Under the pieces are notes generated by a model that saw nothing but the letters and a program-made list of their open reading frames with translations, searched no databases and was not told the DNA's origin. A stretch of 64,000 nt of DNA, from NCBI GenBank assembly GCA_047967505.1, contig CM106538.1. One strand, 5' to 3'. A program made the translations under genes and the position numbers. The DNA comes from Dipteris shenzhenensis. Its lineage: Eukaryota. This document shows, one piece after another, positions 4,481 to 60,585 of this stretch (the first letter of the stretch is position 1; every line of letters starts with the position of its first letter).

Positions 4481-4611
4481 ATCGCTTTATCGTGTAATTT
4501 TTAAATAGAGGTTGGGAGGAGCATGGCCACCTCAAAAGAAAGGAAAGGCAGAGAGACACATTAGCGGTTGATAATTTACTTTATAATACTACCTAATTCA
4601 TTCATGAAATC

Positions 4612-21458: not shown

Positions 21459-24372
21459 ATGTCTATGACTAGCAACCTCAAACTGGAGGCATCTGCTAAG
21501 CTAGACAACTCTAATTACGGCACATGGAAATACCAAATGGAGACCATTCTTTTACTTTAGGACAAATGGGAGTATGTCGATGGTTCTACACCTAGACCAT
21601 TGGACGATCCAGACAGCAATAGCTCTACTCTACCTGTTGTTACAATACTAGCAGCGGGATCTACAACGGGATCTCTAGCTACACCAAAAGTTTCTGCACC
21701 AATAGCAGATCCTGCCATTGACCGAGCACAGGCAGAATGGGACAAGAAAGACAAGTATGCATATCATCTGATCAAGCAGAATGTGCAAGATGACATGCTA
21801 GGACAACTCAACATAGTCAAGACATCCAAAGAAGCATGGGATATGTTCACAACTCTCTACGAGTTCAAGAACACTTCCAAGATTCTCACACTGAGAAATA
21901 AGATAAATGAGAGTTTTTGCAACAGTAGTGAAACGAGTCATGCTTATGTACTCAAAATCAAAGATTACAACAATTAACTCGCAACAATAGGAGAAACCAT
22001 GAATTCAATAGAAATGGTTCAAGTCATCCTAAATGGACTAGGAGAGGGATACGAGAATCTAGTCCAGAGTATTGCCATTCAATGATAAATTTTGACACTG
22101 GAAGGACTCCAGTCAGTTTTACTTAGTAAAGAACTCAGGACTTAGGCCATTCACGCATGCAAAGGTCATTCCAATGATCAAGCATTTACAGCTTTAGATA
22201 GAAGCTGAGGCAGAGGCTAAGGCTAAGGTAGATCATTCCCACGAAGTGGTCATCATCAGAAACAAAGTCAGCACCAACATCATCCTCAGCAATGTCAACA
22301 TCAACAAAGAGGAAATCATTCCAATTGAGGAAGATTCCAAGGATGAGGGAATGCATCCACCGTGTCAAACATTTAGTGCAACTATTGTCATAAGTTTGGA
22401 CACTATGAAAGAGATTACCACTCCAAGAAGAAGTACGACCAAGGCGGTCAATCCAGCAACAATCGAGGGAATTTTCGAGGAAGAGGAAATCATCGTGGTG
22501 GACATTCTAGTCACAGTCATTATGCAAATGGACCTGAGAACATGTTTCTTGCAAGCGAGGAAATGCAGAAGACTGATACAGTAGTGTATCTTGACACTGA
22601 TTGCAATTCAAAAGATGAATTTAGCTATCAAGTCGACCAAGCAGATCAGGATCCTTGGTACATTGATAGCAGCAATGCATCATCTCATATGACAAAATAT
22701 CAAGAATGGTTCACAGAGATGAAGCCATTAGAGGGTCAGAAGAATGTTATCTACACAGCAGATAATACATCGAATCAGTTCAAGGGAAAGGCATTGTCCC
22801 TACTATGAGCAATTCCACTGGTACGAAAGGATTGGTGAAAGATGTACTCTATGTTCTAAAGCTCAACAAGAACCTCTTATTAGTAGGTCAAATGATGGAA
22901 CACAACTATCGAGTCATCTTCGATTGAGATGAATGCACGATCAGAGACAAATCTAGAGGATATCAGCTAGAAGGAAAAGCAGTCAGGGAAGGATGCTTGT
23001 TCAAAATGCTAGCTTCGGTACTAGATTTGCATGCCATGTCAACACAACTGCAACAACAGATGCCACTATCCACAAAATGGCACAAGGGATATGGACATGT
23101 TAATTTCAAAATCTTGATAGAGCTCAAAAATCAGAATATGGCAATTAGACTTCCAAAGCTACAGTTTCTTCGAAAAGTTTGCGAAGCATGCTGCTTCGGC
23201 AAACAAAAGGGAACCAACTTTGGCAAAAGCATCTCTCGAGCACGAGGTATTCTTGATTTGATTCACACAGATGTATGGCATTATGCCCAGACCCGCAGCA
23301 TCAATGGTTCACTTTACTACTTGACTTCATATGGCAGATTACAAGATTGCAGCCACTCCCATGGAATAGAGTTTGAAACTTACAAAAGATTCAGAAAAGC
23401 CTACATTCAATGACAAGTACTATAGGTAGCTCATCGAATCTCTTATATATATGACTATCACACGGCCATATATTTGTTATCTAGTAAGTTCACTTGTGCA
23501 GTTTATGGCAAATCCAAAATAGTCTCATTGGAATGTAGCCAAAAGAGTCTTGAGATATATCAGAGGTACAAGATAGTTTGGGATAGAATACAGAGGAAGT
23601 CATCCAAGGTTGCATGGATATTGTGACAATGACTATGCCAGAGATCATGAGACCAGGAGATCGATATAGGGATATGCATTTTTCCTCAGTTAAGGTGCTA
23701 TATCATGGTTGTCAAACAAACTATCAACTGTTTCTTTGTCTTCAACTGAAGCAAAATATAGAGCACTCACTATAGGTGCATGTGAGGCTATATGGCTCAG
23801 AAGACTATTGTTAGAAACAGATTACTTTGATGAATCAAAACCAACAATAGTATAGTGTGATAATCAATGGCCAAGAATCCAATATATCACTCCACTAGGA
23901 CAAAGCACATTCATGTTAAAGAGCACTTCATTAGAAAAAGAGTGTTACTTGATAGCAAAGAGAATGTTGCAAACATCTTTACCAAACCACTAGGTAAAGA
24001 GCTTTTCGAGAAGCACCGACAAGCTCTTGGTTTGATGTAGAGGAAGGACATTCCCATTAAAGGGGTGTGATGGAATGTAATGCTCAATCCTTCTTTGATT
24101 CCCCAGAATCATCATCTTGAGGGAAGGCCTACTTCAAGATGTTGATCTTGAGGGAAGGTGTTGAGAGATCAGCTCAACATCATGTGATCATATGTGCATA
24201 GCATTAACACATATACAGTGCTATAAAGGAAAGGGTTAGATATCCTAACCCTAACCCTAAAAGGGTTTGTATATATTCTACATTTTCAACTAAATCTAGT
24301 GAATAGTTAGTCATTTGTGGTGTGCTCTCTAGCTGTGCCCTCTCTCCTCTTCTCCTCTCCCCTCTATTGTCA
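21459..24372 (+). mobile_element. Internally deleted, decayed Ty1/copia element with PPT and 214-bp 3' LTR
   Basis: gag (KLDNSNYGTWK; ORF 21600-21977), zinc knuckle CNYCHKFGH (~22378), protease WYIDS..SSHM, pre-integrase WH..YGH...CEAC and LDLIHTDVW. It then jumps to the end of RT and RNase H (GYCDNDYA, VSLSSTEA). PPT tgagggaagg 24149-24158; LTR TG...CA 24159-24372. Confidence 0.9.
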
Positions 24373-30093: not shown

Positions 30094-33000
30094 TGCAAGA
30101 GAGAAAAATAGATAGTATGGAGAATAAAAAATTTGATTACTATAAAACTAATACAATAGATGGTGCTACCTCCCAGCCGTGCACTCCTGTGAGAGAAGCT
30201 TTGATGGCATGCTGGAAACAGTAGAGGACGGAGGCTGGATGCTAAGGAATCAGGGTTGCTATAGCAAGTGATGATGATGGGCTTCATGGGCTTGCTCTTA
30301 TATAGCCACCAGTCATAGTCGGCTAGACCCAATTGGGTGACCGACCCAGTCCAGCCAAAACGACCTCGGTCGGCCACCGACCACATGATAGAACTGTGGC
30401 ACAAAATAGAGCAACTAACCTACGGTCTCCACCATCTAGGATCATCGGGGGCTCTAAATGAGCCCCACAACCTGAGAGTGCCTCGAGAAATGCTCCGTCT
30501 ACCCTTAGTGCAGTCAGTGATGGGATGCCTTCCCGCACTTGCATGTAGCCTAGTTGGCAGTGTGTGAACTCTATCTGAAGCTGTCCAGCCATCAGGCCAC
30601 ACATGGCTCCCATCTAGTGTCCAAAAACCAAGACCTACCAGATAACTGAGCTACTCAAATGCCTTCTCCTCATATGGGGGCTTACAAGTAGAGTTAGCTG
30701 GTTCCCGTGTAGTTACACGAGAGTGGAGCATTGATATCTAACACCCCCCCAATATGTCCACCCGCAAGTGAACTTACTTTTTCGGCCCAACGCCATGATG
30801 AGCTCGCGTACAAAGTGATATTGAATCTCAATGTGTTTTGTGCGAGCGTGGAACACAAGGTTCTTTGCAATCGCCATGCAACTCTGATTGTCACATGATA
30901 ACTGCGTAGGCATGTTCTGCACTACACCCATGTCCCCTAAAATCCTCCTCAACCACACTGCCTCACAAGAAGCAAAACATGTTGATTTGTACTCAGCCTC
31001 AGTAGAAGAAAGAGCAACTATAGGTTGCTTCTTGCTGACCCATGACACAGCTCCAGATCCAAGTGAGAAATAGTAACCTGTCACTGGTCTCCTACTGTCC
31101 ACGTCTCCTGCCCAATTCGAGTCACAGAATCTGGTCAAGATGTTGCCCTTGGTATAGATGATGCCATAATCAAGTGTGCCTTTGATGTATTTCAGCACCC
31201 GCATCCCTGCCCTCCAATGGTTCTCTCGGGGCTTATTAGAAAACCTGCTTAGCACACCAGTCACAAAACTGATGTCCGACCGTGTGTTGCACAAGTAAAT
31301 CAAATTGCCGACAAGCCTTCTATACTTTGCTTCGTCCACCAGTGGTGATGAATCCTCGTTTGAGAGCTTCACGTCAACCTCCATAGGGGTGCCAACTGTC
31401 TTGCACTTAGCCATGCCAAATGCCTTCAGTATCTCTCTAGCATACTTCGGCTATGAGATGAAGATCTGTTTTGGCTCTTGCCAAACTTCAATCCCCAAAC
31501 AGAAATGCATCAGTGTCATTTCAAACTCTCTTCCTAGCAAATGCTTTGTCTACGAGATCTTCTCTTCATGGTTCCATGTTATGACAAGGTTGTCCACATA
31601 AAGGACCATGATCATACACCTGCCTCCTTTGTAGTTATACAAATTTGCATCAGATGGGCTCCTCCTGAACCCATTTTGCAAAAAGTAGGCATCAATCCAC
31701 TGGTACCATGCTCGTTGGGCCTGTTTTAGCTCGTAAAGTGCTTTCTTTAGTTTATAGACTTTATCTTCTGAATCGGGGATCACAAAACCTGTAGGTTGTT
31801 CCACATATACCTCCTCCTTGAGATCTCCATTTAGAAAGCCGGATTTTACATCCATCTGAAACAGGGGCTAGCTTTCTCTTCTAGCATTTGAGTAGAAGAC
31901 AGTTTCTTTTCAAGTTCCTCCTGAAGAAGATGCACCACCATTTCTCTGCTCTTTAGAAATTAGAAGAGCAATCAACTCCTCAAAATAAGGAAAATTCTCA
32001 CAGATAGACGGAATTGTGCATAATCCTTTTGTAGACCATTCAAGGTCACAGAAACTAAATCATCATCTTCCACTGGTGACCCAATAGAAGCAAGTGCATC
32101 TGCAATCTTCTTCACCTTCATGTGGTAGTCATTGATGCTCATATTTTCTCTCTGCACATTATGCAACTCCTGCTTGAGCGCTGCATTTTCCTGGCTTGCA
32201 TATTTTTGCTATACATTTTTGTCGAAGTATCCCACACCTCCTTTGGTGTGCTTGCATCTTGAATATGCACAATCATAGAATCTAAAATACTGATAAACAG
32301 CCAGTACATAACTTTCCTAGCTCTCTCATGCCAGCCTTTAAATGCTTGCAACTCTTGTTGATTGGGAACATTAGGAATAACTGGTTCTTGTCCAGCTCTA
32401 GTAATGAACTCCCAATAGCCTTTTCCCTTAAGGAAATTCGTCATTCTAAACTTCCATGCTTGGACATTGTTCTTGTCAAGCTTTTCAGTGACTATCAGTG
32501 AAAGAGCATCAGATGCCATTACAGAACACTGCGAAATTATTTTGTCACTGCAAAAAACACAACTTCTACCTCACAAGGGCAAATCTGCAAAACTGACGAA
32601 AGTGGTATTTAACCATACAGTCACTTCCTAGTGACGATTTTGCATCAACAGGCAATAGGAATGATTTTGTCATTCCCAATATCTCTGTGCACAGGCATAC
32701 AATGCAATTTTTGTGGTAACTTTTCACCGACCTGCAGAACAGTGGTCACACAACAAAAACAGTGCACTTTTCTGAGTGCTTGCGAAAAACTTCCACCACC
32801 AAAATGGGCACCAAAATGGCCTCTCGCCACACTATGAAGGGCATCCCAATCTGAGAAGTGCACCTTTGCACTTTCTGGCTATGCTACTTGCCTCTGATTT
32901 GCTCCCAAACTCGAAAAAGGAAAGCAACACTGATCCTCTTACCAAGACACCGTGAACTTGGTTTGCTTTCTTGAGCTCCTTACCATGAATCGAGCTTTGA

Positions 33001-35666: not shown

Positions 35667-37471
35667 CACTCAATCACACCTACTAACACATGTTCACACA
35701 CTCACAACCTTAGACCTTAGGACTCTAGATCCCATTACATCAATTTGTCCTTCATTCCCCCCCACAAATTGATGACCTCAACCCTAGCAATAGTCCATGG
35801 GAAACTTCACAATCTGCCCACCTGTAGTGGTAACACACATGATCCACAACCTGGTACTCACTCTAGTTGCATCAGCAGTAGACTCATTTGGGCATCCTCA
35901 TCCATGATCTCACTCTGACTTTACTTTGTTGGTTTACAATTGGGAGATAGACAATGACTATGCATGGGAATACCCTTAGATCCAACAAGGTAATACATAA
36001 GACTAACAATCGTTTTAGGGGGACATCCTAAGGTAGAGAACCCTTATTGAGTCTTGACTACACATACAAAAACATTCTAAGTGGAAGATGTGGGGAAATA
36101 CCCCCCTTTGATGGCATGTCTTGTCCTTTTTCTCCTTCTCTTCCAAGCTACCATAGTGTGAGGTTCATTGTCATTGGAGAGGTTCTTGGTGTAGCCAATG
36201 TGTAGCTCCTTTGCTCTTTGTCCTTGTCCACACTCTTTAATGTATCTTGTCATATTTTGCAATACAAGTCCTTCACCTTCTTTGAGTGTCCAAGCCATAA
36301 AAATATTTTGTGAATCATATGGGCTGAAGAGGCTCTTACCACTTGTCATGCAAGGGCAGTGTCTACTCTTGTACAAGAGGTGGTCATGATTGTATGGCAA
36401 GGTATAGTCAACCAAATGCAAGTACATTTCATACATCATGAAAGATACTGAAACCATAACTAAGACATCTTCAAAATAAGAATCATAATGGTTGTAGTTG
36501 AAACCTTTGTTCCAATCATATCCATTGGAAATCATCATGCAAGTCATGATATATCCTTCCTTCATGTAGGCTCTTGTCATAGTCAACCCACACTAGTCAA
36601 CTAGTCAACAAGATAGTATGACTTGAAATCCACTTCAAAGTACCATAACCTCAATATAAAATATGAAAAATGCATTCAACTGAACTTCAAAAAGCATTCT
36701 CACAACTAAAAAAGCAATCTCTGAATCGCTGATCTATACTTTAACTCCTCAAGCATCACCTTAGCATTTAGTGTAGCATCAAACTTCAAAAATAGTCTAG
36801 AAATGCCAGAAAGCATAGGAACCTTGGAGGATTGCTACCTCACTCCAAAAAGCATCAAGAAGAGGGAATTTGCTGTGCAATCAAAGGTACTTGGAAGTAG
36901 AAGACTCAGTGCAAGTCTCAAACCAAATGAAGCTTCACACCACCAGGGGAAGTAGTATCTTCTCCACCTCCAAAAACCATGTCTCTTCTTCAAAACCCAA
37001 CTGGTTTTGCCTTAGTTTCTCCTCATTCCCTTGACCATTTTCCCTAAGAATTCACCAACAGGTAGCCCATAGAGTCACCTAAGTGCACCTCAGACCATTT
37101 TTGAAATGCTAGCTCCAATAAGCTAAATTGATAGAAATGGCATAGGATGAAGCAAGTATCAGCATGGGCTATAGAAGGACAATTTCCAAAAACCCTTTGG
37201 AGTAGAAGTGCGCCTTTATGAGGGGAATCTATGGCTGAAATGGTTTGGAGAATGGTTGCCTACATTGGGAGAACAAGCACTTGAAAATTTTTCTCAAAAG
37301 AGGGAAAAATGGAGAAGAAGAGAGTGTGAGGAAGAAGATGATGACATGGCACCCGAAAACCTATATTCACTCAATCACACCTATTGACACCTATCTAGGC
37401 ACACCATGTGTTCACACACCCACAACCTTTGACCTTAGGACTCTAGATCCCATTACATCAATTTGTCCTTC
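35667..37471. repeat. ~90-100-bp direct repeats ~1.7 kb apart (possible LTR ends)
   Basis: cactcaatcacacct...gaccttaggactctagatcccattacatcaatttgtccttca at ~35667-35754 and ~37368-37471. Confidence 0.75.
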
Positions 37472-38375
37472 AAAATGTTGAATTAGTAATCATACCCAGG
37501 TTCTACCAAAATTTCCCCGGAAATCCTATCATCTTTTTGCATCCTATTTCCAACTTTCAAAACTACAAATCTTTATTTCCTCTAGCTTAAATGAATCCCT
37601 CATTAATCTTTTTAGAATCTATCACATTTTTGACAATATGGAATCCTTCACTTCCTATGATGGTACTGTGAGTCTCGCCACTCCCTCTACCGGCCTCATC
37701 ACCACTTCACTACTCCTACTAGCCTCACCACCCCTTCTACTACTCCCTCTACTATTGTGTCTCCCTCTACTTCCATAGCCCCATCACCATATATCCCTCC
37801 CTCTATCTCTTTCTCCATGCCAAGCCATATCATTGATGAAGAGTTGAATCCCAAACCTAAGCCTCAACAAAATACCCAAAGGAGTCTAGTCAACAATCCA
37901 CAACATGCCCAACAAAGAGAATAAATATGACCATAATGGTAGCCCCTCTCTATCCCATAGGAAGCCCTTAGTTTTATATTGAGATAGACCTTGCCATGGA
38001 ACTTCGTGAAACTCTAGTCACCCTAAGCTAATAGGAATGGCTCTATCTTCAAGGAATATCCCCTCAGATATAAAAACTTCCACATTCCTATTTCTTGTGT
38101 GGATAAGCCACACAAAACCAAAGTGGACTATCAAAGGTAGGGCAAAAAACCAAGACATGGAGAAAACTGCAGAAATAGGGATAGATAACAATTCAGACTA
38201 GAAGGTAGAGGCTCAAAAGAAACCTATTGTATAGTAAGAAAAGGAGAGAGTGACTTTTCCTTTGGCAACCAACAATACTTTTGAGGCTCTTATTGACAAA
38301 GAAACTAAGAAGTGGATTCAAGATGCACAAATGGAGGAAGCTGAAATCAAACCTAGATGGTTTAGAGAGTTTGAG

Positions 38376-38409
38376 CATTAGGGGAAAATTGGGGTCTCAA
38401 AAGGGCCTT
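38376..38409 (+). repeat. Left terminal inverted repeat
   Basis: cattagggga-aaattg-gggtctcaaaagggcctt; 10-bp and 18-bp blocks identical to the right TIR, 6-bp spacer. Confidence 0.92.
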
Positions 38410-38960
38410 AAAAGGAATGGATTAACCTCCTAGGTGGGAACCAAAAAATTCAAAATTCAAAATTTGAATTTTGAATTCCCTCCCTCATTCTCTCTCCTCC
38501 CTCCCTCGCTCCCTCCCCCTCATCCCTCCCCCTCCCTCACTCCCCCTCCTCACTCCCTCCTCCCCCTCCCTCCTCCTCCCCCTCCCTCTCTCCCTCCTCC
38601 CCCTCCCGTCTCCTCCTCTCCCCCTCCTCACTCCCTCCTCCCCCTTCCTCCTCCTCCCCCTCCCTCCCTCCCTCCTCCATGCCTGCTCCTTCTGCCCTCC
38701 CCTTCCCTCCCTCCCTCCATGCCTACTCCTCCTGCCCTTCCCCTCCCTTGCTCCTCCTCCCCCCTCCCTCCTACTCCTCCCTCCTCCTCCATGCCTACTC
38801 CTCCTCACCCTCCACACCTACTGGTCTGCCCCCATTTCCTCCTCTTCAACTACTGGTTCTCCCTCACCCTTCCCTCCTCCTCCTCGCCCTCCCTCTTCCT
38901 TCGTGCTGCTCCTTCAAGCCTACATCTCCACACCTTCTCCTTCTCTGCACTCCTTTAGTC

Positions 38961-41903
38961 ATGGCACCATTCAAGGACATCTCCAACAAGTACCAGGTCC
39001 ACTTAGAGTTGGAGGCTGAATATGCAAGCACACGTAGTCTAGGATCGAGGGGAGCTTCCAAAATCCGCAGTCTTTATTCGCAAGGAAAGAAGCATCTCAA
39101 CCTTTGGGTAGAAGGATCCTTGTATCCTTTAGATCCTGCCAACCAAAAGAGCCCTCCTTTCCATACAATGCATGAGCTAGTTCCGTTTTTTGGAAATGGA
39201 CATGCGAGGTTGCTTGGTTATTGCAATCGGTTAAACAATGCTTAGTCAATGGCTATGCAAGCAAGCGAGATGCACAGAGCCCAAGTAGAGATGTTAGCAC
39301 ATTTAGGAAATAGCACCATTGTTGTAATGCATAACTCTATGTAGGATCTTCAAAGGGAGAACCAGGATCTTCATGATAAAGCCAAAGCATTGGACTTGGA
39401 GCAACGTAAATTAGAAGAGTCACTCTATAAGCTAGCTAAGTCCAAAAAAGGCTTGAAAAGATCTATATACAATCAAGTACGATGAGCCATAGAGAAGGAA
39501 CGAGAGAAGGCAGAAGAACGAGTGCAAAAGATGAAAGAAACACCTTTGGGATTGAAGGAGAGGAAAAGAAGGTACTTACATAACATGGATGCATTGGCAC
39601 CCACTGGTGGTGCTAGAAAGAGGAGAGTCTAGGCTACAAGGTTGGTTATGAAATGTTCCAATGAGATTACACTCTTTTGTGCTACACTGTTTGTGACTAA
39701 GTTTTTATTGTGTTCTTCTTTAGGAACTTCATGGAAGATGTGATGGGAAGAATGGATGGGGATGATATTGACTATTCATATGCTCTAGCTAGTTTATTGA
39801 AGTCAATCGATGTCATTGAGATACTAAGGGACCCAAGACACAAGCGCCTATGTGTGCAAGTTGTTGAGGAGGTGATGAAGGACTTCAAGGATATTGTAGA
39901 TGCAAAGGAGATGCTTGTAGCTTGTGATACTGCCGGTGTAAGTCATGAAGCTTACACATCTATTTTTAAAATTTTCAAGTCTGCTATTTTGGGAAAGTAT
40001 AAGAAGTCTATAGTGCCCCTACCCACACCTTGGTCTGTGAGACGTGCATGGCGAGAAACAAACCAATGTGCAAGAGAAAAGCGTGGAGGGTAACATTGCG
40101 TAAGGGGCACAATGACTTGGAAGAGTAAAAAGAAATCTAGCTTGCAAACCTTTGAGATGAATGCTTTCAACAATGTCTACTTAGATGTTGAGAAACTACA
40201 ACAAGCAATGGTCTTCTATGGCATGAGAGAAGATGGTAAGAGGAAATCCATTATAGCATTGCACTTTACTTAGTTCATTTCCTATATCATGTTTATCCTA
40301 ATGGATTTTCTCTTTTGTTGTACAAATTGCAATGGAAAGCTCATATTTGTCATCAAAATGTATGAAGCTCAATTGGTGAAAGAACACAAGTTAGAGAGAG
40401 TCAGCATCTGCATTATGAATGAAGCCTTAGCCTTTGTTCAAGGGGACAAAGAAGTAGAGCAAGATTTATCAGTGCAATTAGATAAAGATATATGGTGGCT
40501 TGTAGCGTTTGAGACTTCAAAAGAGTGCCATGAGACATTGAAGTGGGTTCTAGATAGAAAATGAATCCCATCGACGATTCAAAGATAAGAGGAAGGGCAA
40601 ACATTGACAGTCGATGGCCATGGAACTTTTCAAGTTGAATGGCATCTTGCTGGTGATTTGAAAACCCTCAAGTGCTTGCATGGTTACGATACAGGGGCAA
40701 ATGCAATGAACACATGCCTTTATTGCATGTGTTCGCAATGTAAGCAAAAGGTTGGCTTACAATGGGAGAATGTCATTCTATCTTGTAGCCAAACGCAAGC
40801 TCCGAATCGTGACAAGAAGGATCCAAAGTGGGATCCCATCTTGCCCATCCCACTTGAGAGAGTACACATATGTACTTTACATGTAGAACTGTGCGTACTT
40901 GATAAGTTGTTGTATTTGCATCTTGTCTATGCTTGGAATTTAATTCTACAAGAAGTATCCACATGGTGCATTGCAGAAGCTGAGAAGTTGTTGTCAGAGA
41001 TGGGATTGCATAGAGGACATGTCAAACTTAAGGAGGATAAGAAATGTCTGGGGCAACATAGAATCTTCCTACAAAAGTGTCCATGGGTGGAGGGAAGGCA
41101 AGGAGATTCCTATCAAACCACAATCTCAACAAACATAAACATACATTGTCTCAAAGTAGTTTGGGTTGGGAATACTGGAAAGCATTGTGTGAATGCATGA
41201 CCAATAAGGCTTCTCATCCTCAAGTAGCAACTTTGAGAGCTAAAGTACAGACAAAGGTAGATGCATTGATAAAATTGCTTTGCTAGGTTCAAATCGATGA
41301 GATGTATTATGAAAGGTTCAGGCTGGCTGTGAAAGAGTTTATGTAATTAATGGTGAAAGCATGGGGGGAGTCACACATTACACATTACATGGTAATCTTG
41401 GCACCATTCTAATATTTAGCACTTGCTTTATAAACAATTTTTGTTGCTGATATGATTCTCATCATGTTTGTAGCATTCTCTATGCACATGGACCATGGTT
41501 TGTACAAAATTGGGGTCCCTTGTCAATTTGGAATACACAAGGCATGGAGAAGTTGCACTATAGAGCCAAGGCAGCCTACTTCAAGAACTCGAGGCATGGT
41601 GGTGGTGTCACTCGTAGCAATGCATTGCATGAGATGTTCGACTAGTTTTTTCGATGTTTACTAAGAAGGACTTTGGAGTCTGAAAAGGCAAAGGCATCAG
41701 AACTTGCAAAAGCAGTTCAAACTATATCAAAGAATAGAAGGCATAGTGTCTGGAAAGCATCCATAGGGAGTCGAGGAGTCACACTTGCAAAAGCAGTTCA
41801 AACTGTATCAAAGAATAGAAGACATAGTGCTTGGAAAGCATCCATAGGGAGTAGAGGAGTCACATGTTGGTTGCAAGCTAGAGTGAGAGAAGGGATCAGA
41901 TGA
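38961..41903 (+). pseudogene. RAG1/Transib-like DDE transposase with 3 introns, disrupted by stops and at least 2 frameshifts
   Basis: ATG 38961; introns 39641-39723, 40236-40325 (acceptor reads AA, not AG) and 41392-41473. Motifs in order: VIKM(Y)EAQ, ECHETL, LTVDGHGTFQV, AGDLK, CLYC, ICTLH, MGGGKARRFL, ITHYM|(H)ILYAH, GPLSIWNTQGMEK. Confidence 0.85.
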
Positions 41904-42262
41904 GTCCAACCACCAACAAAAGCTATGGTGTAATTGTATACAAATATGAAATAAATATATTGCTTATTTTGACCACAATTTGTGTACTTACTCTTTAATA
42001 TCTTGCTTATTTTGACCACAATTTTTGTACTTACATGACATTGGGGAAAGTGGGGACATGGTGAATAGGGGCGAGAGAAGGGAGAGGCATGGGGCGGGGC
42101 AAGGGGAGGGGTGGAGTGGTAGCAAGGGTGGGGGGAGGGGGGGATGGGGGGTATGGGGGAGGGCGATGGGGGCGGGGCAAGTAGGGGGAGGGCAGGGGGG
42201 GGAAGGGCAACGAGGGTGGGGGGGTTGGAGGGGTTAGTAGGGCGGGGGCAGGGGACATGATG

Positions 42263-42333
42263 AAACCCTAAATGTAATTAAAAGGGATGTCAAAACATGA
42301 TGGGCCCTTATAAAAAGCTTTTAAAAACCCTAA
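42263..42333 (+). promoter_or_regulatory. Putative promoter of the H3-like gene: telo-boxes, site II motif, TATA box
   Basis: AAACCCTAA at 42263-42271 and 42325-42333; TGGGCC 42301-42306; TATAAAAA 42309-42316; ATG 42347. Confidence 0.55.
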
Positions 42334-42346
42334 CTCTCATTATTCA

Positions 42347-43372
42347 ATGGCAAGAGTGAAGAACACTGCTAGACCCACTGGACATCGCCTCCACCCTTCC
42401 TCCTCTAGCTCCACCACCTCCATGGCATCTATGCACACAAACCTATTCGGGTTCGATGGCACCTCCCTCGACTCTCATGAGCTCTCCCCCAACTCCCCCA
42501 AGTCTCGTGAGCCCACTCCCTAGTCTCCTGAGCCTTCTCCTCCTCCCAAGTCCCGTGAGCCCACTCCCCAGACCCAAGAGCATGAGCCTTCCCCTCAGCC
42601 TTCTCCCCAGCCTTCCCCTCAGCCTTCCCCTCAACCTCAGCCTTAGCATGACCCTCAGCCTTCCCCTTGGCCTCAGCCTCAGCCTAACCCTTAGCCTTCC
42701 CCTCAACCTTCCCCTGAGCCTTTCTCTAGGCCTTCCCCTCCCCATGAGATCCCTCTCTCGATCGAACAAAATGTATTCGATAACCTCTCGGATATAGAGA
42801 GGCTTCCTAAGGGTCAACAGGCTGCCATGAAGAGCACCATCTTCCCTCTCCCAGAGATACAACCCATGGCAGAGATGACCCTTGTGCCCATGAGGAGGGT
42901 AAAGCAGACTCCGAGGAAGCCCCATCCCAAAGAAGGCCAAAGCTCCAGACATTAGCGAGAGGAGGACTCAAACGAGGACCAACGTAGACAAGAGCAGCGA
43001 AAGAAGTTCAAGGCAGACAAGAGGCCGTGGGAAGGTGTTCAGGTACTTGTAAGGCCCCCACCAAGAGTCAAGAAGCCATACTAAGTAAAACTAGGAGTGC
43101 GGGTGATCAGGCAAATGCAGAAGACCATCGACAACTTGATCCCGCGTGCTCCCTTCCAACGTGTGGTATGGGAGATCAGACAGGGATACAAGGACAACAT
43201 GCACTTCAGCATAGGAGCTATGGGGGTGCTCCAGGAGGCTACAGAGCAAGTGACCATCGCTCTCTTTGAGGACGCCAACTTGTGTGCCATCCATGCAAAG
43301 CGTGTCACGGTCATGGACAAGGACATGGCTCTGGCGAAGCGGCTATGGAGTGACCCAAGTTTGAATCCCTAG
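42347..43372 (+). pseudogene. Histone H3-like protein with a long Pro/Ser/Gln-rich N-terminal tail (341 codons plus stop, 5 in-frame stops)
   Basis: One reading frame from MARVKNTARPTG (42347) through PSPQ repeats, MRRVKQTPRK (42890) and VKKPY to the H3 fold [21 protein letters not shown]...LQEATE...[28 protein letters not shown]. Stops at 42521, 42644, 42692, 42953 and 43082 are all TAG or TAA. Confidence 0.9.
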
Positions 43373-43565
43373 ATTCTCTTGCAACCCACTCTTAGGACTT
43401 AGACCACCCCCTGCCCTTGAAGGCACTATCTTATATCTAAAACCCAAGGGCCTATTTTTTAAAATAAAATATATCAACATTCTCTACACTATCGCATTGT
43501 TGTATATTTTCCATTTCAATGCTTGCAATAAATGATCATTTTAAGTTAAGTTTTGAATTCTGTTC

Positions 43566-43736
43566 AATCCTGAAGGAATTTCACCATCGCGCAAAAGGGA
43601 AAAGTGTCTGGCACATCGCCAGGACCCCAGAAAGCCCAAAACTTGCCATGGTGTGAATTTGGGCATTCTGGACTTTGCCCTGGCGAGGTTTCGGACACTT
43701 TTACCTTCTGTGCGATGGTGAAATTTCTTCAGGATT
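43566..43736. repeat. 171-bp imperfect palindrome (hairpin)
   Basis: Left arm aatcctgaaggaatttcaccatcgcgcaaaagggaaaagtgtc...; reverse complement of right arm aatcctgaagaaatttcaccatcgcacagaaggtaaaagtgtc...; inner ccagaa(a/t)gcccaaa pair; centre ccatgg. Confidence 0.9.
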
Positions 43737-43965
43737 TCACAAAAATGAACTCTTGATACCCAGAATTGGTGAAAATGATACTAAATTGGCTAGAAATCTA
43801 TTAAATTAACACAATTAAAATGATGGAGAAAATATATCATCGACTTAAACAAAATACAATGGAATTCATGACGAGCAATGAGAACTTAAAACAAATAATA
43901 AAGACATGTAGTCATGTATCCATTGAAATATCCATTTAGATATATGTTTATATATACAAAAGGCC

Positions 43966-45434
43966 TCACAGGCTATCTTTCTTCTTGGCTAGTTCGAGTA
44001 CATTGAGAATAGGGGTCTTTGAATCCCCTAGTGGATTCCTAGATATAAATCTAGCCACAACAGCACTAACATCCTCCTCTCCTACTACCAAAGATAGCCG
44101 TTGCCGTCAATGCCCTGCCATGAATGTTCGATCTAAAGGCATTGATAGCAACCAGGTGGTGTACCAAAATGACTTTGTCGACATTCCGAGTAATGTTGAA
44201 GTATCCAATAGCACGCGATAATGCCTTGCACTTCAGCAGCTTCAAAGGACCTCGAGGAGAAAATTTGCTATGAAAGACCACGATATGCTCTACGACTTTG
44301 CCAAGGTAATGGGCCAAAGAATGATCTCGCCCAAATGTGCTGTGAACATTACCCTATCGAGATGAGAATTCATCAAGCTCGAACACATCCTGCAACAATT
44401 CAACAAACATTAGAAGACCGACAAAACAAATTATACTGAAACAACATCAAAATAAAAAATATTGTTCGAACTTACCACTACAGCGTCATCGGCTTCTATC
44501 CCTTCGTCATTTGCAATGTTGAAGGAACCAGGTGCTATGTGATGTTCCATTTGGGAGGTGGACGCTTTCTCCTGACTTGTGTTGGAGGTGGAAGCTTCTG
44601 CATGAGAGGGTTGTGCATCGTATACGGACATGTCTACATCCCTCATTGAAACCAGCATTGTCAAGAGAAAGTCTTTCATTGTCTAGTCTTTGATACCTAA
44701 AACCCTAGGATCTTTGACACTTGTGTCAACATCAAACCTCGATAGGACTCTGAGTGCCTCATCCTCTCGTAGTCCAAAAAGAATCTCTATGTCATGGAGG
44801 AATACGTACTTTTCTCCATCGATGACGAGGGGAAACAAGGACCATAATTTTGAGTTTGGGTCAACGGTCTCTGATGCAGATTCTTGCTCTACTGGGGGCT
44901 CTTGAAGCAGGCTCAATGCTTGAGCTACTTCCATCTCCTCTATTGGATCATCAAGAATCTCTTCCATGTAGATTTCCGAGTCTAGGGACGACCATATCAG
45001 TAGTTCTGATAGAGGGGGTGCTAGACGATGAGGTTTCTTCCTCTAAATTTCATCTCCCATGAAAGGAATTTGGTGCCTGTATTTCTTATGATCCTTGCGT
45101 CTAGGATGTCTTGAACTTCGACTGTCCTAAACCCTTCGTATGTAAGGTTGTCACAAAAGCGGGCCAAGCGCTTTACAAACTTGGGTTCCTCTACGAACAG
45201 ATACTTTATGTAATCTATGGGAACCCATCTCTTTAAAGTGTGGTCAAGTGTATAGGCAAAATTTGCGAAATTATCTTACATGTAAAGGATGAGATCTGAA
45301 AAGTCATCCTTGGCCTGCATATATGTGCTTAGGACATCTAAACTCCTATCAAACACTAAAAATAGCTCTTCCTCATGATTTGCAAATGCAGTTTGTGAGA
45401 TGAAGTCATGGAATGTAGTTCTAGCTGAATCCAT
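43966..45434 (-). pseudogene. Unknown protein gene inside the transposon (one intron, stops and frameshifts)
   Basis: ATG 45434 (MDSARTTFHDFISQ...); TATA-like run at ~45540. ORFs 44683-44967, 44431-44679 and 44066-44317 are linked in frame by a stop and a GT-AG intron at 44475-44390. Confidence 0.6.
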
Positions 45435-45680
45435 GGCAAATAGCAGTTGATGGAGGGAGTAACTTTTGAGGATGGGAGTTTCTATGGCTCTCTAAATGTG
45501 AAAGTGAGAATGTGATGTAAAAAGGGCTCTTACCCCTTAATATATATAAAAACCCTAAAAATTAAAATTAATCATAAAATCCCCAAATTTTTTGAAAAAC
45601 ATTTACCATGAACTGAAAGGAGAAAACATTAAAAGAAATAACATTTTAATTTAATTGTCCATCATCTTTTGAATCAATAA

Positions 45681-46993
45681 CTAGGATTTGATAGACAAAA
45701 AATTAAATGCTGCACTAGTAAACACATTGTTAGCAATCTTCAAAGTTGCAGGAGGAATGAAATTGGCACTATGCATGCACTTCTCCACATGGTGGCTGAT
45801 CTTACCACCATTTAAGGTAAAGTAGAAGAACTCTGACATGCTGTCCTCCATGACCAATAGGGGTTCTCGCACATCCCCTAGAGTCCATTGCAATGTGACA
45901 TTCACATTCTTGACATCTCCTTTTTCAGCATGAATAGACAAACTTACCCCCATATTGTCTTCATCATTAGAGTCTAGGGGAAGCCACCGGCCATTTGTTT
46001 TCTTCCAGTTCCTATACTGAAAAGCTATATACAACATTTCGCATGTATCTAATAACCACATTGTCTTTACATGCATGACATTGAAACACATCACCCTTTT
46101 GGTCACCTGACCTGGTTTCCCAATTCATCCCAAGTAAATCTTCAAGAGCATTTTCATCTACATGCTTGCAGGACCACATAGTTTTTGTTCTATGCATATG
46201 TATATTCTGAAATAAAGAAGCAAAAATGTGCAGAGGCATAAACCAAGATAACCTTGCCCATTTGGATCCAAATGTAAACTTCATGGCCATGCCCACATCC
46301 TTTGCAATCTTGTCCTTGTATGATTGCAATGTCCTCGAGTCCACATTGCTGCAATCCATGTCTTGAAGTTGTGGTAGTGCAATGGTTTACAGACATCCAT
46401 AGCTTGATGATGTCGTTGGAGTGATGTATGTTGCATTATATCAATACACATTCTTCATTCACAAGGAGGCCAACTTCTCCCCGGCATGCATTTGCTCACC
46501 TAAATCCTCATGAATCGCAGTGAACTTGCCTATGAATGATTCAACTAGTTCCCACTCCTCGAGGTCCAAAGGGAAAAAATTTGCCACCATGAATAAGAGC
46601 TCTTAGAAACCAAACACAAAATTTCCAAATGGACGCATTACACTTATAGGTGAAAAAGATACATAGATAGAAAGGCTCACAGTGTGATGGTATCCTAGAT
46701 TGATTGAATGATGGAGGAAGCTGCATATCTTTTCCCATGTAAACATGTTGCACTTTTGCGAGCCATCCTTTCTTCCCAAACTTGAACTTCAAGATGCACC
46801 CCTTCCACTCATGCAAGATGTCACCTCTCTTGCACTTGGGAATCTTATGTGGACCTTTGGCCGATCCTTTCATCACTATCCAGTCATTTAAGTTGTAGGT
46901 GCAAGGGATCTAATCATCCAATGCATTTTTGGTGTTGTGGAAGACACAAGAGGTCACAGCATTGCATGGTCTTGTAGCCTTTCTCCTCACCAT
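45681..46993 (-). pseudogene. Probable BAH-domain protein inside the transposon
   Basis: ATG 46993; YNLNDWIVMK...EWKGCILKF...AKVQHVYMGKDM, intron from 46680 (acceptor not clean), then FPLDLEEWELVESFIGKFTAI...NVY*YNATY. This follows the BAH motif order and runs in frame into ORF 46012-46359. 3' end uncertain. Confidence 0.65.
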
Positions 46994-47679
46994 GCTTGCA
47001 GCAGTTGCAACAACAAGAACGGGACTCCTACACAAGGCAGTGCAGCTCCAATAGAGGCACAAAAGAGGGAGAAGGAGAGGGACAAAGTAGTAGCAATAGA
47101 GGGAGAAGTAGAGGGATAGAGCAGCAACAACAGAGGCATAAGAGAGGGAGAAGGAGAGGGACAGGGCAACAACAACAGAGGCACAGGAGAGGGAGAAGGA
47201 GAGGGGTAGTAGAGCAGCTCCAACAGAGGTACAAGAGAGGGAGAGGGGAGAGAGAGAGAGAGAGGAGCTGGAGCAAGCAGGCTAGAGTAGGAGGGAGCAG
47301 AGAAAGAGGGGGAAGAGGGAAAATGCGTAGGATTTGGTTTAAATTTGAGTGATTTGGTAGGCTGGACCAGAACAGTGGGCGGCAGAGGCCCTAGAAAGAG
47401 GGAGGGGAGAAGAAAAATTTGCCACAAGGGCCATACCATCCCCTTGAAGGTAGTTTTGGGCTCATGTGGGGGAGGTGCACCTGGTAGGAGTGTCAAAAAT
47501 GGGTTGAGGGGGGGGGGATGGTTTGGGTGGTCCCTAGTGTAAGGGGAGCAACCAATAGGGGCTCTCTGCAGGCATGCCCACCCTCCACCTCAGCATACCA
47601 TTGCACCACACCTTCTAGCACTCTCATTGATACACCTCAAATCACTCTCTAATCCCTTAAAATTAGGAAACACTAATTG

Positions 47680-47710
47680 AAGGCCCTTTTGAGACCCTTC
47701 TCCCCTAATG
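47680..47710 (-). repeat. Right terminal inverted repeat
   Basis: Reverse complement cattagggga-gaa-gggtctcaaaagggcctt; same two blocks as the left TIR, 3-bp spacer. Confidence 0.92.
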
Positions 47711-50700
47711 GAGGATGTAAATCAAGTAGATGCCAGTATGAGTGAATTAGAGTTAGGAGACTCAGAGGAAGAACTTCCTTTGGCCCAAAAACTGAGTAAT
47801 CCTATAGGACCTCCTGCCAAACCTCAAGCCACAACTCTGAATAAGAGAAGGATTTCCAAGTAAAGGGTTAGAGTGCCCCACCCAAAAGCCCAACACCCAA
47901 GGCTAAAAAGGGGAAGAGTAAAATAAACCATTCACTTTTCTCACAATGTTTGTGGATTAACTGACTCTTGGAGGAGTCAGGAATTAGCCAAGTGGCTGAG
48001 AGATAGTTCTCTGTCTCCTACATTTCTTATCTTACAAGAGGTGAAAGTAACAAATGTCACCCTGGATAATAGGTTAAAAAAGGTTGACATCATAAGAATT
48101 TGGCATTTCACAAGTCATGATGAAGGAAGGGGTGGCACTGCAATTGGGATATTGTCTCATGACAAGGACTGTGTCATCAGGTGCAGGCAGGACCCAAACC
48201 ACAAATGGCTTGCTTTAGAATGCAGAATGAAAATTTTTTATTTCACAGTTGTCTCAGTTTATGGTCCAATAGGCTCTATGGAAAGAAGAATCACTTGGGA
48301 TTTAATGCTGAATCTAGGAAGTGACTGTATTATTATTGGGACTTCAACATGGTTGAGAATATCAAAGACAGATGGATGCAGAAGGGATCAGTACTTAGGG
48401 GTTCTAAACAACAAATATAGGAAGATCTCAAAGAAAATTTGCAAGTGGTATACATCGGGACTCCCAGCATCTACACTTGGAGCAATAGACAGGTAAGTAA
48501 TTTGAGGAGAGAAGCCAGGCTAGATAGGGTGTATATTTCTCAATCTCTAATTGACCAAGCTCTAGAAGTCAAACAATCCACCTTTTCATCCCTCACCTTA
48601 TCAGACCACAAGCCAGTGTTAGCTTGTATTGATTTGGGGTGTGGGAAGAAAGGAGACTCTTGCTTTAAGGCCGATCCTTCCCTGTTTAAGCTTCAGACAG
48701 TTCAAAGACAACAAATTATAGAGAGTTGGCACTTGTCTTTTGTAGTAGCTGACTCCTTGTGTCAGGGTTGGAAGGATGCTATTGAAAGGGTCCAAACAAT
48801 CTTAAAGGAAGCCAAAAAAAATAGAGTAGCCATTAGAGCAAGAAGAATGGACAAGCTTAAGAAGAATATTGAAGGTCTTGAACAAAGAGCTAGAAGTAAT
48901 GATGTCAATACCCAACATCAATTATTGGTCAAAAGAAAAGAGGTCAGAGTACAAGAACAAATCAAGCTACATAATGCCAAGGTCTACTTTAGGGAATGGT
49001 GGGTAGGCAAGATAGACAATCCAACTAAGGAGAATTTCAAAAGGATTAGAAAAAAGAGGAATCATGACAAAATCCCTTGGTTGCAAAAGGAGGATGGGGA
49101 ATTGGTCAAATCAGAAATAGAAAATATGGAGATCATAGTCACTCACTTCAAAAACCTTTTAAGCACAGTGGAGTTAATAGACAACAAGGTCTTGGAGGCC
49201 AAAAATAGGTGCCATGTAGCCAAAAAATCCTATGTATCTAACCTAGACAAAAATCAGTTGGAAATTGACCTATCCCTTCAAGAACTTAAAGAGGAGGTGT
49301 TTGCAATGACTGATGGCAAAACACCTAGGGAAGATGGGCTACCTGTTGAATTCTACAAATTCTTTTGGGACATTGTTGGCCCCTCCTTACTGGCTGTTTG
49401 GAGGGAGAGTGTTAAACAGGGCCTACTCCCAAAGCATTTAAATGGAGGGGTAATTAAACTTATACCAAAGGAAGGGGACAGGACAGTCTTAAAATATTGG
49501 AGGCCCCTCACTATACTAAACTGTTCCTATAAGATATATGCTAAAGAAATTGCTTTGAGACTAAGACACAAGATGGACAAGTGGATTTTGGAGGAACATA
49601 AAGGATTCATCAAGAACATGCATCTATTAGAGGCAATCATCAAATTATGGGAAGGGTGCACTCATGTTGAAGAAAGAAATTAAGAGATCTGTCTTATTAA
49701 AATGGACTTTGATAAGGCATATGATAGGCTGAATTGGGGCCTTCTGCTACAGTCACTTAACAGCTTGGGATTGGGGAAGAAATTTACCTCCTATGTAGCT
49801 CTGCTAATATCAAATGCCTCTACAAAGGTGTGTGTGAATGGTGATATGTCTCAAAGCTTCATGTTGAGAAGGTCCATTATTTGCTATAGCTGTTGATGCC
49901 TTGGGATGGTTGATAAAAGAACTGGTGATTGCAGTAGAAATCAATGGTATAGAACTCCCCTCTAGAAAGCAACTGGTATACCAGCAAATTGCCAATGATA
50001 CTACCCTAACAATTAGAAACACAAATGTAGACATACAAAGAGCTATGGAATGTATGGATATATTCTGTAATGCATCTGGGTCAAAAATAAATCACTTCGA
50101 AATAGGTTATGCATTATTATTTGGTGACAACCTAAACCTTTTAGAATAGCTTGGATGCAAGAAGGTTCCCCATGGACAGATATTCAAGCTATTAGTTATC
50201 CCTATCAAATTCAATGTTAGGATGAAAGATAGATGGGAGTTCCTAGAAAAGTTCAAAAAGAAAATAGATAGTATCAGGGGATTGCATACATCAAAGCCCT
50301 AACTAATGGAATTTAGCATTTCATGTGATAGACTATCTTCTATACGATGGCAAGGGATAACCTTGAAGTATTGTTAGCCTTAAACAAGGCCAAGGCTTAC
50401 CTACCTCTTCTCTTCCCTTTGATCTCCATTGCCTTGACATCCTTCTCTTTCCTTACTTTGCCCTTTCATCCTCGTTTACCTATTTCATTGTAGTCTCTTT
50501 GCCTAATTTTCTTTATCCATCCATGGAATACCATTATGGGGTCTGCTACCTTTGTGAACATTCTCTTTAGCATCATCATGCCACCCACGCTCGCTGTCTT
50601 CCTCAAATTTGGGTGTGTGCCCATTTCATTCAGGTAGGCCTCATGAATGATATATATAATTCACCTTGTTTGGAATATTACAATTTTTACCATTAAGAAA

Positions 50701-58146: not shown

Positions 58147-59694
58147 TTAGAACCAAGAGGAGAGCGCATTTGTATCGTCCTCCAAATCCATAATCGCAAC
58201 GTAATCCTCTTCCTTGAAGAGATCTGCAACATCCGCTAGCTCCACCACACTCTCTTGCGGCAGCCCTCCAAGATCAAAGAAGCTTAAGCTTCCGAATTCG
58301 ATGTCGAAATCGTCTGGCATCAATTCGGAATTGAGTTCCATGGTTTCTTGTTGCGTCTCCATTAATGGAGCGATTGCATCGTCACAAAGTTGTGCAATCC
58401 CAGGTTGAAACACATTGCCGGAGATAGAGAGAGAATCTGACCGCTGGTCTAATAGCCAATCCAAGGAAGAAGGTGGGTCTCTTTCCATGGAATCTGAGCC
58501 TTCGCAGGGTGCAGAAGAGGCTTCTAGGAAAAGGCACCTTCGCTCTGGGCATGAGGACACTTCTTTAGAGGTTGCACAATCCAGAAACTCAAGGGAGCTT
58601 GTAAGATCGAGACTGCTGGAAAGAGAGCAAGCTCCAGGTGATCCAGGGGATCCGGAGGTCAAGTGATTGATCAAAACAGAAGAAGGTGAAGAGACAGACA
58701 GAATTTCTTTGGGCTCGAAATACTGCGGCACTTCGAAGAAGCTCATGGGCGCACCACTTGATTCGCAGCAATCTACTAAGCTTAGCTTCGATGTGGAATC
58801 TTTATAGCCATGATCTGATTCACAGCAATCGATGGACTTTAGCTTCGACGAGGAAGCTTTGATTGCTTCACTCGAATGACCAACATCTTCAACTTCACAG
58901 TAGCTTTCAAGTGACGGCGCAGTCTTTCTGTTTAAAACCTTTTGAAACTTCCCCCGACTGCGATCTTGAAACAGGGCAGAAAAATTAGTAAGAGCTTGAG
59001 GGCCTCTAATTCTCTTGGCTGCTTTGTCATAGGCACGCGCAGCTTCTTCTGCTGTATCATAGGTACCCAGCCACAATCGGACACCCTTTGAGGGATCTCT
59101 GATTTCGGCAGCCCATTTTCCCCACGGCCTCTGCCTCACACCCCGAAATTTCTGAGCTCTCTGTCGTTCTTGAGAGCTCCTCACACTTGTAGGAGGAGGC
59201 GGCAAAGACTTCCTAGCTACCTTGCCCGGTACTGGGCTGCCTCTCACAGTCCTAGCTTCTTTCTTTGTGTACAATTTGTTACTTTTCTTCCACAGAGGTG
59301 CACTTTTAGTCAGCCCAACAGAGTTCCTCTGGAAGTCACTGACGTGTTGGTCCGAATGTTCAGCTTCCTCTTTCAGATTACTCTCAGCTGCAGCGTCAAT
59401 ATCGTCTCCGATGCTGGGAGAATAAAAATCGGGATCAATGTAAATGTCCTGAATTTGTCTTTTGATATGAACGTTGCAGGACCCGACTTCTTCATCGCTG
59501 GAGGATTCCGTAGCATCTGGATCAGTGCATATCACTCGTACCCTCTTCGGCCGAACCCTGGATCTTGAAGGACTTAACTCATCCTCGGAATCCGAGAAGA
59601 AATATTTCTCAGCTATGCGTTGAGTCCTCTTGAGCGCGCCTGATGTTTTCGCATAAGGTCGTGCTGATTTGGGACACTTTTGAGGCCCTGGCAT
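58147..59694 (-). CDS. CRF: AP2/ERF transcription factor of the cytokinin response factor (CRF) type, intronless, 515 aa
   Basis: First ATG 59694 (MPGPQK); CRF domain [21 protein letters not shown]2 domain [20 protein letters not shown]...[17 protein letters not shown]...ALTNF; SPSSVL motif. Confidence 0.93.
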
Positions 59695-60585
59695 CTTTGG
59701 AGAAGTGGAAAAAACCACCAAGGTTCCACAATATTTCGAAAACGCCGAGGGCAATGGTGAGGCTTTCTTTTCAAGACGGTTTGCACGCTGCAAGGCGTAA
59801 ACTAGCTAGCCTGAAGTAGTGCACTAGTGGTATCTCCTTGCAGGTCATAGGAAGCAATACCCAGGAGTGACAGTGAGAACGCAAGAACGGAAGGGAAGGA
59901 CGTATACGTACTGCAGCTACGGAGGGGAATGACAATTTGCAGATCCGAGGTTTGCCAAAAAGGGTACCAGAAGGCAGCTACGCAGGGAATGACAACTTGC
60001 AGATCAGAGAATGGAAAAAGGGTACCAGAAGGCAGACATTTGCAACATGAGGGCAATAGAGGGTGAAAGCTCATGCGAGCGGGGGAAGCAAGCAAAAACT
60101 GCTGTCGCGGAGGCCTTAATTTCCTCGTGCGACTACACTGATCAGAAATCAGAGACAACTGCAAGGGCGGGTGCCGCCGGGGAGGGAAGGGAAGTTCCAA
60201 TATATGAAATGCAAGAAGGGGTGGGGGGCGTTGCGGGACGATTGGGGAGCTCGTCACGAGCGGGCAGCTGCACGTTGAGGCGAAGGAAAGGGCGCGTGTG
60301 TGTATGGGACGAGGCGGGGCAAAGAGAGACGAGGAAGGTACAAAAACAGATCAGTGGTGTCCGTTTAATCAAGAGCAAGAGAGGGTGCGTGCGTGCAGGG
60401 AGGCAACGAAAGCAAGCATGATGATGGGAAGGTGAGATAGGCGGAGAGGAGGCAGCGGCGGCAGCAACTGCAAGGAAAAGAAACGTGGAGATGGAGGGGA
60501 GATGATGGGAGAGGAAGAAGAAGATGGAAAGACGAAGAGGAGGAGGAGGAGAAGGGAGGGTATGGCGATGGCTAGCTATGGCGAT

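Follow-up and report, generated by a model that had tools for sequence, protein, structure and literature searches.

We analysed a window of 64,000 nucleotides from Dipteris shenzhenensis (contig CM106538.1 of GenBank assembly GCA_047967505.1). A gene at 38961-41903 on the plus strand of this window had been described in an earlier note as a plant transposase whose motifs are collinear with those of the RAG1 core. We conclude that this gene is probably a transposase pseudogene of a decayed, non-autonomous transposon copy of the CMCT clade (CACTA/EnSpm, Mirage, Chapaev, Transib, and allies), and that it falls outside both ordinary plant CACTA/EnSpm elements and canonical Transib elements. The unit that carries it is a multi-copy cut-and-paste DNA transposon of about 9.3 kb (38376-47710), with old and young copies. 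The family is most likely Lanisha, or a close relative of it, as judged against descriptions of Lanisha. The likeness to RAG1 reflects genuine homology that the entire CMCT clade shares; it is not evidence for a RAG or Transib element in plants.

All nine motif strings reported for the gene are present, in the reported order, between 40340 and 41560 (open reading frame list and sequence). The features of the gene are listed here, numbered where needed by the full-length relative P0003:

38961-41903, plus strand: transposase pseudogene with a DDE core and a C2/H2 zinc module (open reading frame list, sequence and relatives).
40361-40363, plus strand: TAT (Tyr) in the motif KMYEAQ, where the first catalytic Asp (D411 of P0003) is expected (alignment).
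40655-40657, plus strand: GAT in the motif AGDLK, the second catalytic Asp (invariant D508 column; sequence and alignment).
40715-40726, plus strand: CLYC, predicted C-x2-C zinc ligands, 20 residues past the second Asp.
40871-40882, plus strand: ICTLH, a C-x2-H motif with the invariant H591 column.
41474-41489, plus strand: (H)ILYAH, predicted H-x4-H zinc ligands that open the last exon, with a loss of 2 nt behind the codon for the first His.
41547-41549, plus strand: GAG in the motif GPLSIWNTQGME, the catalytic Glu (invariant in 14 of 14 C-terminal exons).
41702-41864, plus strand: 81-bp tandem duplication (two copies, 93% alike) in the part of the transposase frame that encodes the C-terminal tail.

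The motifs ECHETL and LTVDGHGTFQV are found in the window gene as well, as is MGGGKARRFL followed by ITHYM. Directly after ITHYM lies one 82-nt GT..AG intron (41392-41473).

The copy in the window is dead and cannot transpose on its own. Two of its lesions had been recognized in the earlier note, and we see both. At 40361, KMYEAQ aligns to the KLDESE of relatives, in a column that is nearly invariant for Asp. At the intron acceptor, CAT (41474-41476) is followed by ATT CTC TAT GCA CAT out of frame, which is the 2-nt defect. The damage had been under-counted, as further stops and changes of frame were missed: there are in-frame stops within conserved blocks at 40091, 40562, 40586, and 41346, along with two frameshifts, and tblastn with intact relatives aligns the gene in frames 3, 2, 1, and 3. 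Because of the Tyr in place of the first Asp, the stops, and the frameshifts, this copy could be mobilized only by the enzyme of intact copies. At 40586, C is the letter in other genomic copies (two DNA runs, 9 of 9 contigs each). After 41041, three contigs per run have an extra A, and these contigs supply most of the depth at that point (190.5/223.4 in run X1 and 233.8/277.6 in run X2). The 40586 stop and the frameshift near 41041 are thus specific to the window copy.

The ends of the element comprise inverted repeats, subterminal arrays, and a putative target-site duplication:

38373-38375, no strand: left copy of the putative 3-bp target-site duplication, GAG (direct reading).
38376-38409, plus strand: left terminal inverted repeat, 34 nt, beginning CATTAGGGG (inverted blastn match).
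38477-38813, plus strand: CT-rich, low-complexity subterminal array, 5' of the transposase gene (Tandem Repeats Finder).
47059-47267, plus strand: AG-rich subterminal array (CT-rich on the minus strand), the mirror of the left array.
47677-47710, minus strand: right terminal inverted repeat, ending in CCCCTAATG.
47711-47713, no strand: right copy of the putative target-site duplication, GAG.

The inverted match runs from 38376-38412 to 47710-47677 (blastn, E = 1.3e-4). An 18-nt core of the repeat has two occurrences in the window and no more, inverted relative to each other, and none of 100 shuffles reached two. Other copies of the element have three more letters after 47696, which equalizes the lengths of the two arms. 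The match of GAG on both flanks was seen in one copy only and has a chance of about 1 in 64. Reading the duplication as 5 bp fails (TTGAG versus GAGGA; only 3 bp agree). The end of the element reads CATTA, one letter off CACTA, and the subterminal arrays are CT- or AG-rich; these too were read from one copy.

To map the copies, we took the contigs of two DNA runs labelled as the same species (X1 and X2), placed them on the window at 80% likeness, and tabulated them in 400-nt bins. This placed 726 and 686 contigs. Those from X1 range widely in their likeness to the window (26 at 99% or more, 107 at 95-99%, 228 at 90-95%, and 365 under 90%). All of the bins across 38203-47826 are covered, and the adjoining bins on either side have zero coverage; the depth of the family begins in the bin 38203-38603 and stops in the bin 47426-47826. 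We did not find significant inverted repeats in six metagenome loci with relatives (L005, L009, L010, L011, L014, and L017), whose contigs probably end before the termini. Rfam had no match in 37000-49000.

To find relatives of the transposase, we used an uninterrupted 160-residue exon (40589-41068) as the query against a database of 1.84 billion representatives. There were 146 relatives at E ≤ 1e-3, 60 at E ≤ 1e-10, and 5 at E ≤ 1e-30, and a word-index search gave 21 further, longer proteins. Full-length members (P0003, P0167, and P0169) are 857-900 amino acids long. The only named relatives are hypothetical proteins from Klebsormidium nitens and gene models from the fern Adiantum nelumboides. 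The family has intact members but no Pfam model, and genome annotation pipelines will leave it unnamed.

The motifs coincide with conserved columns of this family, beyond what chance would give. In an alignment of 30 members, D508, K510, H591, and R595 (in P0003 numbering) are invariant, and D411/E412 are nearly so. In 14 C-terminal exons from metagenome loci, the Glu (in W.TQG.E) is present in 14 of 14, as is the second His of H-x4-H; at least 13 of the 14 have both His. The layout of P0003 is D411, D508, C528-x2-C531, C588-x2-H591, H761-x4-H766, and E785. The family thus conserves a DDE triad (D411, D508, and E785), of which the window copy has Tyr at the first position, together with the Cys and His residues of the clade (C528/C531, H591, and H761/H766). 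In two related members, P0152 and P0123, both CxxC and Hx4H are absent and the D, D, and E are retained, while six full-length members with CxxC have both. The joint loss was probably one event, and it would fit a single shared zinc site.

Many of the database fragments end just past THYM, which fits a shared intron position. Most members have introns. The branch with P0003, at about 35% identity to the window gene, is intronless. We built a family tree from about 170 residues around the second Asp, using 36 of 43 candidates; the seven that were left out either lacked the second Asp by pattern (six) or were too short (one). The window's exon falls in a group of 11 rows that includes P0023, P0169, and P0002 (support 90/94, not starred). 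P0165 and P0152 have very long branches.

The transposase is not the only gene in the element. Two more were found between its 3' end and the right terminus:

42347-43372, plus strand: histone H3-like pseudogene, downstream of the transposase (Pfam and open reading frame).
44135-46909, minus strand: remains of a conserved accessory gene, ORF2, convergent with the transposase (tblastn; the upper limit, 46909, is from an open reading frame only).

The H3-like gene is the most unexpected observation of this analysis. Its frame starts with MARVKNTAR, continues through a long Pro/Ser-rich tail to an H3 histone fold (Pfam Histone, 43085-43372, E = 2.8e-25), and has five in-frame stops. Similar genes are found elsewhere in the family. 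In the metagenome loci L001 and L002, whose transposases belong to the P0003 branch, an H3-like gene adjoins the transposase on the same strand. In L001, it begins 27 nt past the transposase's stop codon (2129-2707; one in-frame stop), and in L002 it is an intact open reading frame of 168 residues (1723-2229; Pfam E = 5.6e-26 and 1.3e-28). A second H3-like N-terminus begins downstream in both loci, before the contig ends. Also, in two gene models from Adiantum (P0186 and P0219), a histone fold is joined to part of a transposase. A passenger gene free of constraint would not have stayed open, with so strong a Pfam match, while the transposases diverged to about 35% identity, so the H3-like gene appears to be under selection. 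RNA reads from two runs are uninformative about expression: 227 of 228 and 97 of 99 lie only partly on the window, nearly all at under 90% likeness, and the pile at 43015-43415 continues into other histone H3 sequence. We found no relevant report on histones carried by transposons in the literature.

P0186 also has a weak match to a Ulp1 protease (Peptidase_C48; residues 453-479, E = 0.067) at the end of the model. This may be additional cargo or an artefact of a chimeric model; the window showed no counterpart. The stretch that separates the transposase from the H3-like gene holds a 38-nt direct repeat (41954-42034, 95% alike), followed by an AG-rich array (42155-42210). Downstream of the H3-like frame, an inverted repeat (43548-43623 and 43679-43754; 76-nt arms that are 80% complementary and 55 nt apart) may be a small nested insert, such as a foldback or a miniature inverted-repeat transposable element.

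ORF2 encodes up to 627 amino acids and is common to seven of the 20 metagenome loci (L005, L009, L010, L011, L012, L014, and L017); most of the others end too early. It lies at 3467-5347 (minus strand) in L017 and at 3258-4832 (minus strand) in L011. The protein from L017 matches the window at 44380-44135 (tblastn, E = 1.5e-9) and at 44874-44737. The ORF2 proteins have a common ..DI..LF..RED.. block, and the C-terminal part is better conserved. ORF2 has no match in Pfam or in the Protein Data Bank (PDB).

What superfamily does this element belong to? In mouse RAG1, the catalytic residues are D600, D708, and E962, and a single zinc site is formed by C727/C730 and H937/H942 (passages of PMC4914335). 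Like RAG1 and Transib, the family has a DDE triad in which a long stretch is inserted after the second Asp and ahead of the Glu. As in RAG1, C-x2-C lies about 20 residues past the second Asp (20 in P0003 and 19 in mouse RAG1) and H-x4-H lies 19-20 residues before the Glu (19 and 20, respectively). The motif layout therefore bears out the claim of a core collinear to that of RAG1. The step from these motifs to a RAG or Transib element does not hold. According to the portions of Kojima (2025) that we consulted, the set of DDE, two Cys, and three His is shared by EnSpm/CACTA, Mirage, Chapaev, Plavaka, ESTA, Lanisha, Transib, and RAG1; C(2)C and H(3-4)H lie between the second Asp and the Glu, and a third His is conserved as well. 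Because the layout is clade-wide, the motifs identify the CMCT clade, including ordinary plant CACTA elements, and the element is unusual but not unprecedented. The same source gives 5'-CA..TG-3' ends and duplications of 2-5 bp for the clade, and it lists Lanisha as a plant member. The window element has CA..TG termini and a 3-bp duplication, as read in one copy.

Lanisha was proposed as a superfamily from the moss Ceratodon purpureus (passages of PMC8245031; Carey et al. 2021; Repbase Reports 2020; GenBank MT647524). By that description, it resembles our family in being a cut-and-paste lineage of the CMCT clade in plants that is EnSpm-like yet stands apart from EnSpm. It is the only such plant lineage that we found in print. 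A plant lineage of the clade outside EnSpm has thus already been published. We consider the identity of the family with Lanisha itself to be plausible, at a little under an even chance. Lanisha is from a moss; our family was seen in a vascular plant, a fern, and a charophyte alga. An alternative is a never-named CMCT lineage, distinct from Lanisha, that reaches from charophyte algae to ferns. Named relatives come from K. nitens and A. nelumboides only, with no Ceratodon name among the matches, and the literature that we found on Lanisha concerns neither ferns nor algae. On the other hand, the word-index search lists few matches and names, so the missing moss name says little, and Lanisha is known to us here by its description, not its sequence. 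We view a separate lineage as possible but doubtful.

Could the family instead be a true streptophyte lineage of Transib/RAG1-like transposases, within or sister to Transib and nearer to RAG1 than to the CACTA type? We think that this is improbable. Arguments for it come from the ESM Atlas, whose results we treat as leads and not as tests. With the features of the P0003 core, RAG1 clusters come first (0.96; 200 of 256 features), and RAG1 is the family for 8 of the 10 best matches that have a family. With the features of another member, P0179, the nearest clusters are unnamed ones from cnidarians, one from Mucoromycota in which 16% of members have DUF1280, eight arthropod matches in which 38% of members have RAG1_RNase_H, and RAG1 clusters; no Transposase_21 cluster is among the matches listed. 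The spacing of the zinc ligands, which is within one residue of mouse RAG1, and the inverted ends (34 nt, near the 38 nt of Transib) also fit this explanation.

Structural look-alikes show no such preference. For the Atlas's own model of P0179 (predicted template-modelling score, pTM, 0.63; predicted local distance difference test, pLDDT, 0.59), the best matches are unnamed clusters from rotifers, Mucoromycota, and streptophytes (TM scores of 0.59-0.63). A structural comparison to RAG1 had been proposed in the earlier note, and the RAG1 clusters do match (TM 0.55, 0.58, and 0.48), but Transposase_21 clusters match equally (0.55, 0.57, and 0.56). As far as this model shows, the fold is common to both, without preference for either.

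The PDB contains RAG1, RAG1-like, and Transib chains. We know of no solved structure for a CACTA-type transposase. Any member of the clade would thus be expected to match RAG1-type chains best, and a fold search of the PDB by itself would not have told the two apart. At E ≤ 10, we found no transposase among PDB chains with P0003 alone (phmmer; three noise matches, E = 0.68-1.3) or with a profile of the 30 members (HMMER; 53 matches with E = 0.16-2.8, to coiled coils and T4 lysozyme), and the profile of the 14 C-terminal exons had no matches at all. Neither profile, then, matched a RAG1, RAG1-like, or Transib chain; these negatives rest on HMMER, which is less sensitive than HHpred. In Pfam, the pieces of the window gene have no family (Transposase_21, PF02992, in 0 of 7 pieces), and none of the 26 members with full Pfam tables has PF02992, DUF4218, Transpos_assoc, or a RAG1 family (E up to 1 or 10). 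A Pfam scan with the 30 members had neither PF02992 nor a RAG1 family among the 25 families listed of 59. The distant relative P0165 has a sub-threshold match to DUF1258 over the region of the second Asp (E = 0.01). Overall, we saw no similarity to Transib or RAG1 at the sequence level in the HMMER and Pfam searches.

The structure of the element also differs from Transib. As given in excerpts of Kapitonov & Jurka (2005), Transib elements have 5-bp duplications, 38-bp ends with a CAC heptamer and an A-rich nonamer, and a distance of 206-214 residues between the second Asp and the Glu (253 in RAG1); the CAC is described as universally conserved. Here, we found a 3-bp duplication (in one old copy), a 34-nt end that starts with CAT, and a distance of 277 residues in P0003. 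In addition, the family's element has extra genes, unlike Transib elements as published, and most members have introns. By title or in the passages retrieved, the literature held no report of Transib in land plants, Archaeplastida, ferns, or moss.

An ordinary plant CACTA/EnSpm element, with a transposase too decayed or divergent for Pfam to recognize, is more improbable still. The family has much in common with CACTA/EnSpm: membership in the same clade, with the same set of two Cys, three His, and DDE (Kojima 2025, in part); a 3-bp duplication, CA..TG ends, CT-rich subterminal arrays, and a CA(T)TA end that is one letter from CACTA, as read in one copy; a large size with several genes; and TM scores of 0.55-0.57 to Transposase_21 clusters, of which a streptophyte cluster scores 0.56. 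But decay does not explain the missing domains, as intact members of about 900 amino acids also lack PF02992, DUF4218, and Transpos_assoc. The earlier note had named ordinary plant CACTA as the placement that would count against it, and at the level of Pfam, with Transposase_21 in 0 of 26 members, this is not what we see. The accessory genes also differ from those of CACTA/EnSpm, being an H3-like histone and a convergent ORF2. Furthermore, the nearest Atlas clusters are unnamed and come from Cnidaria, Rotifera, Mucoromycota, and Streptophyta. These unnamed clusters are the nearest there both by features (0.96) and by structure (TM 0.59-0.63); some of them have DUF1280 on 12-16% of members, and they carry no curated name.

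Finally, the gene is almost certainly not a domesticated host gene, nor are its motifs a product of chance; nothing speaks for either view beyond the missing Pfam name. The genome has many copies of the unit, which stop sharply at the inverted repeats, the window copy is full of stops, and the motifs lie on invariant columns of the family.

Several points weigh against our placement of the family in the CMCT clade outside CACTA/EnSpm and Transib. It rests on family profiles, the ends, and published descriptions of the superfamilies. RAG1 or RAG1_RNase_H clusters rank above any Transposase_21 cluster for the features of both P0003 and P0179, which leans towards Transib, and the structural look-alikes come from a low-confidence model (pLDDT 0.59). 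The ends and the duplication were read from one copy, plus a depth profile in 400-nt bins, and that end is CAT where CAC is typical of the clade. Also, parts of a 2026 preprint describe Transib lineages with 3-bp or TA duplications and a Transib transposase that has no InterPro match. Given these lineages, a 3-bp duplication and a missing Pfam match do not by themselves exclude Transib.

If the placement in the CMCT clade is correct, then the intact relatives, at about 900 amino acids, would have an RNase-H-like DDE core (D411, D508, and E785 in P0003), and a single zinc site, C-x2-C plus H-x4-H, would clamp the long stretch that separates the second Asp from the Glu, as in RAG1. The enzyme would bind the 34-nt inverted ends, excise the element, and reinsert it with a 3-bp stagger. 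By analogy to RAG and Transib, we assume a hairpin intermediate.

The window is plant DNA, and the surroundings of the element include genes and other mobile elements:

11947-13135, minus strand: Sec61/SecY exons.
16095-16478, minus strand: piece of a reverse transcriptase (RVT_1).
21561-23413, plus strand, and 30713-32570, minus strand: two stretches of copia-type gag or gag-pre-integrase.
58147-59805, minus strand: AP2-domain gene (E = 8.2e-16).

Directly past the right end (47927-49683, plus strand), there are long open reading frames that resemble those of long interspersed nuclear elements (LINEs), with a weak match to Exo_endo_phos (E = 0.0013); one of these, of 420 amino acids, has no match in Pfam. 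The transposon may have landed beside or within LINE-like sequence.

For this family, the collinear RAG1 motifs are a tempting reading that needed correction: such motifs in a plant gene do not prove a RAG or Transib element. Our analysis adds the structure of the element, with its ends, its duplication, and three genes. In a reference tree, this plant lineage may help to root the split between the CACTA-type branch and the Transib/RAG1 branch. The H3-like gene beside transposases that share about 35% identity offers an example of a histone carried by a transposon that can be tested. A broader and more speculative proposal, to which we give a low but real chance, is that the family is a streptophyte-wide lineage, from an alga to ferns, that is neither EnSpm nor canonical Transib, is no farther from Transib/RAG1 than from CACTA, and carries one or more H3-like genes and ORF2. 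If this is true, then a histone variant would be provided by a transposon, perhaps for packaging or marking the element's own chromatin or for directing where it inserts.

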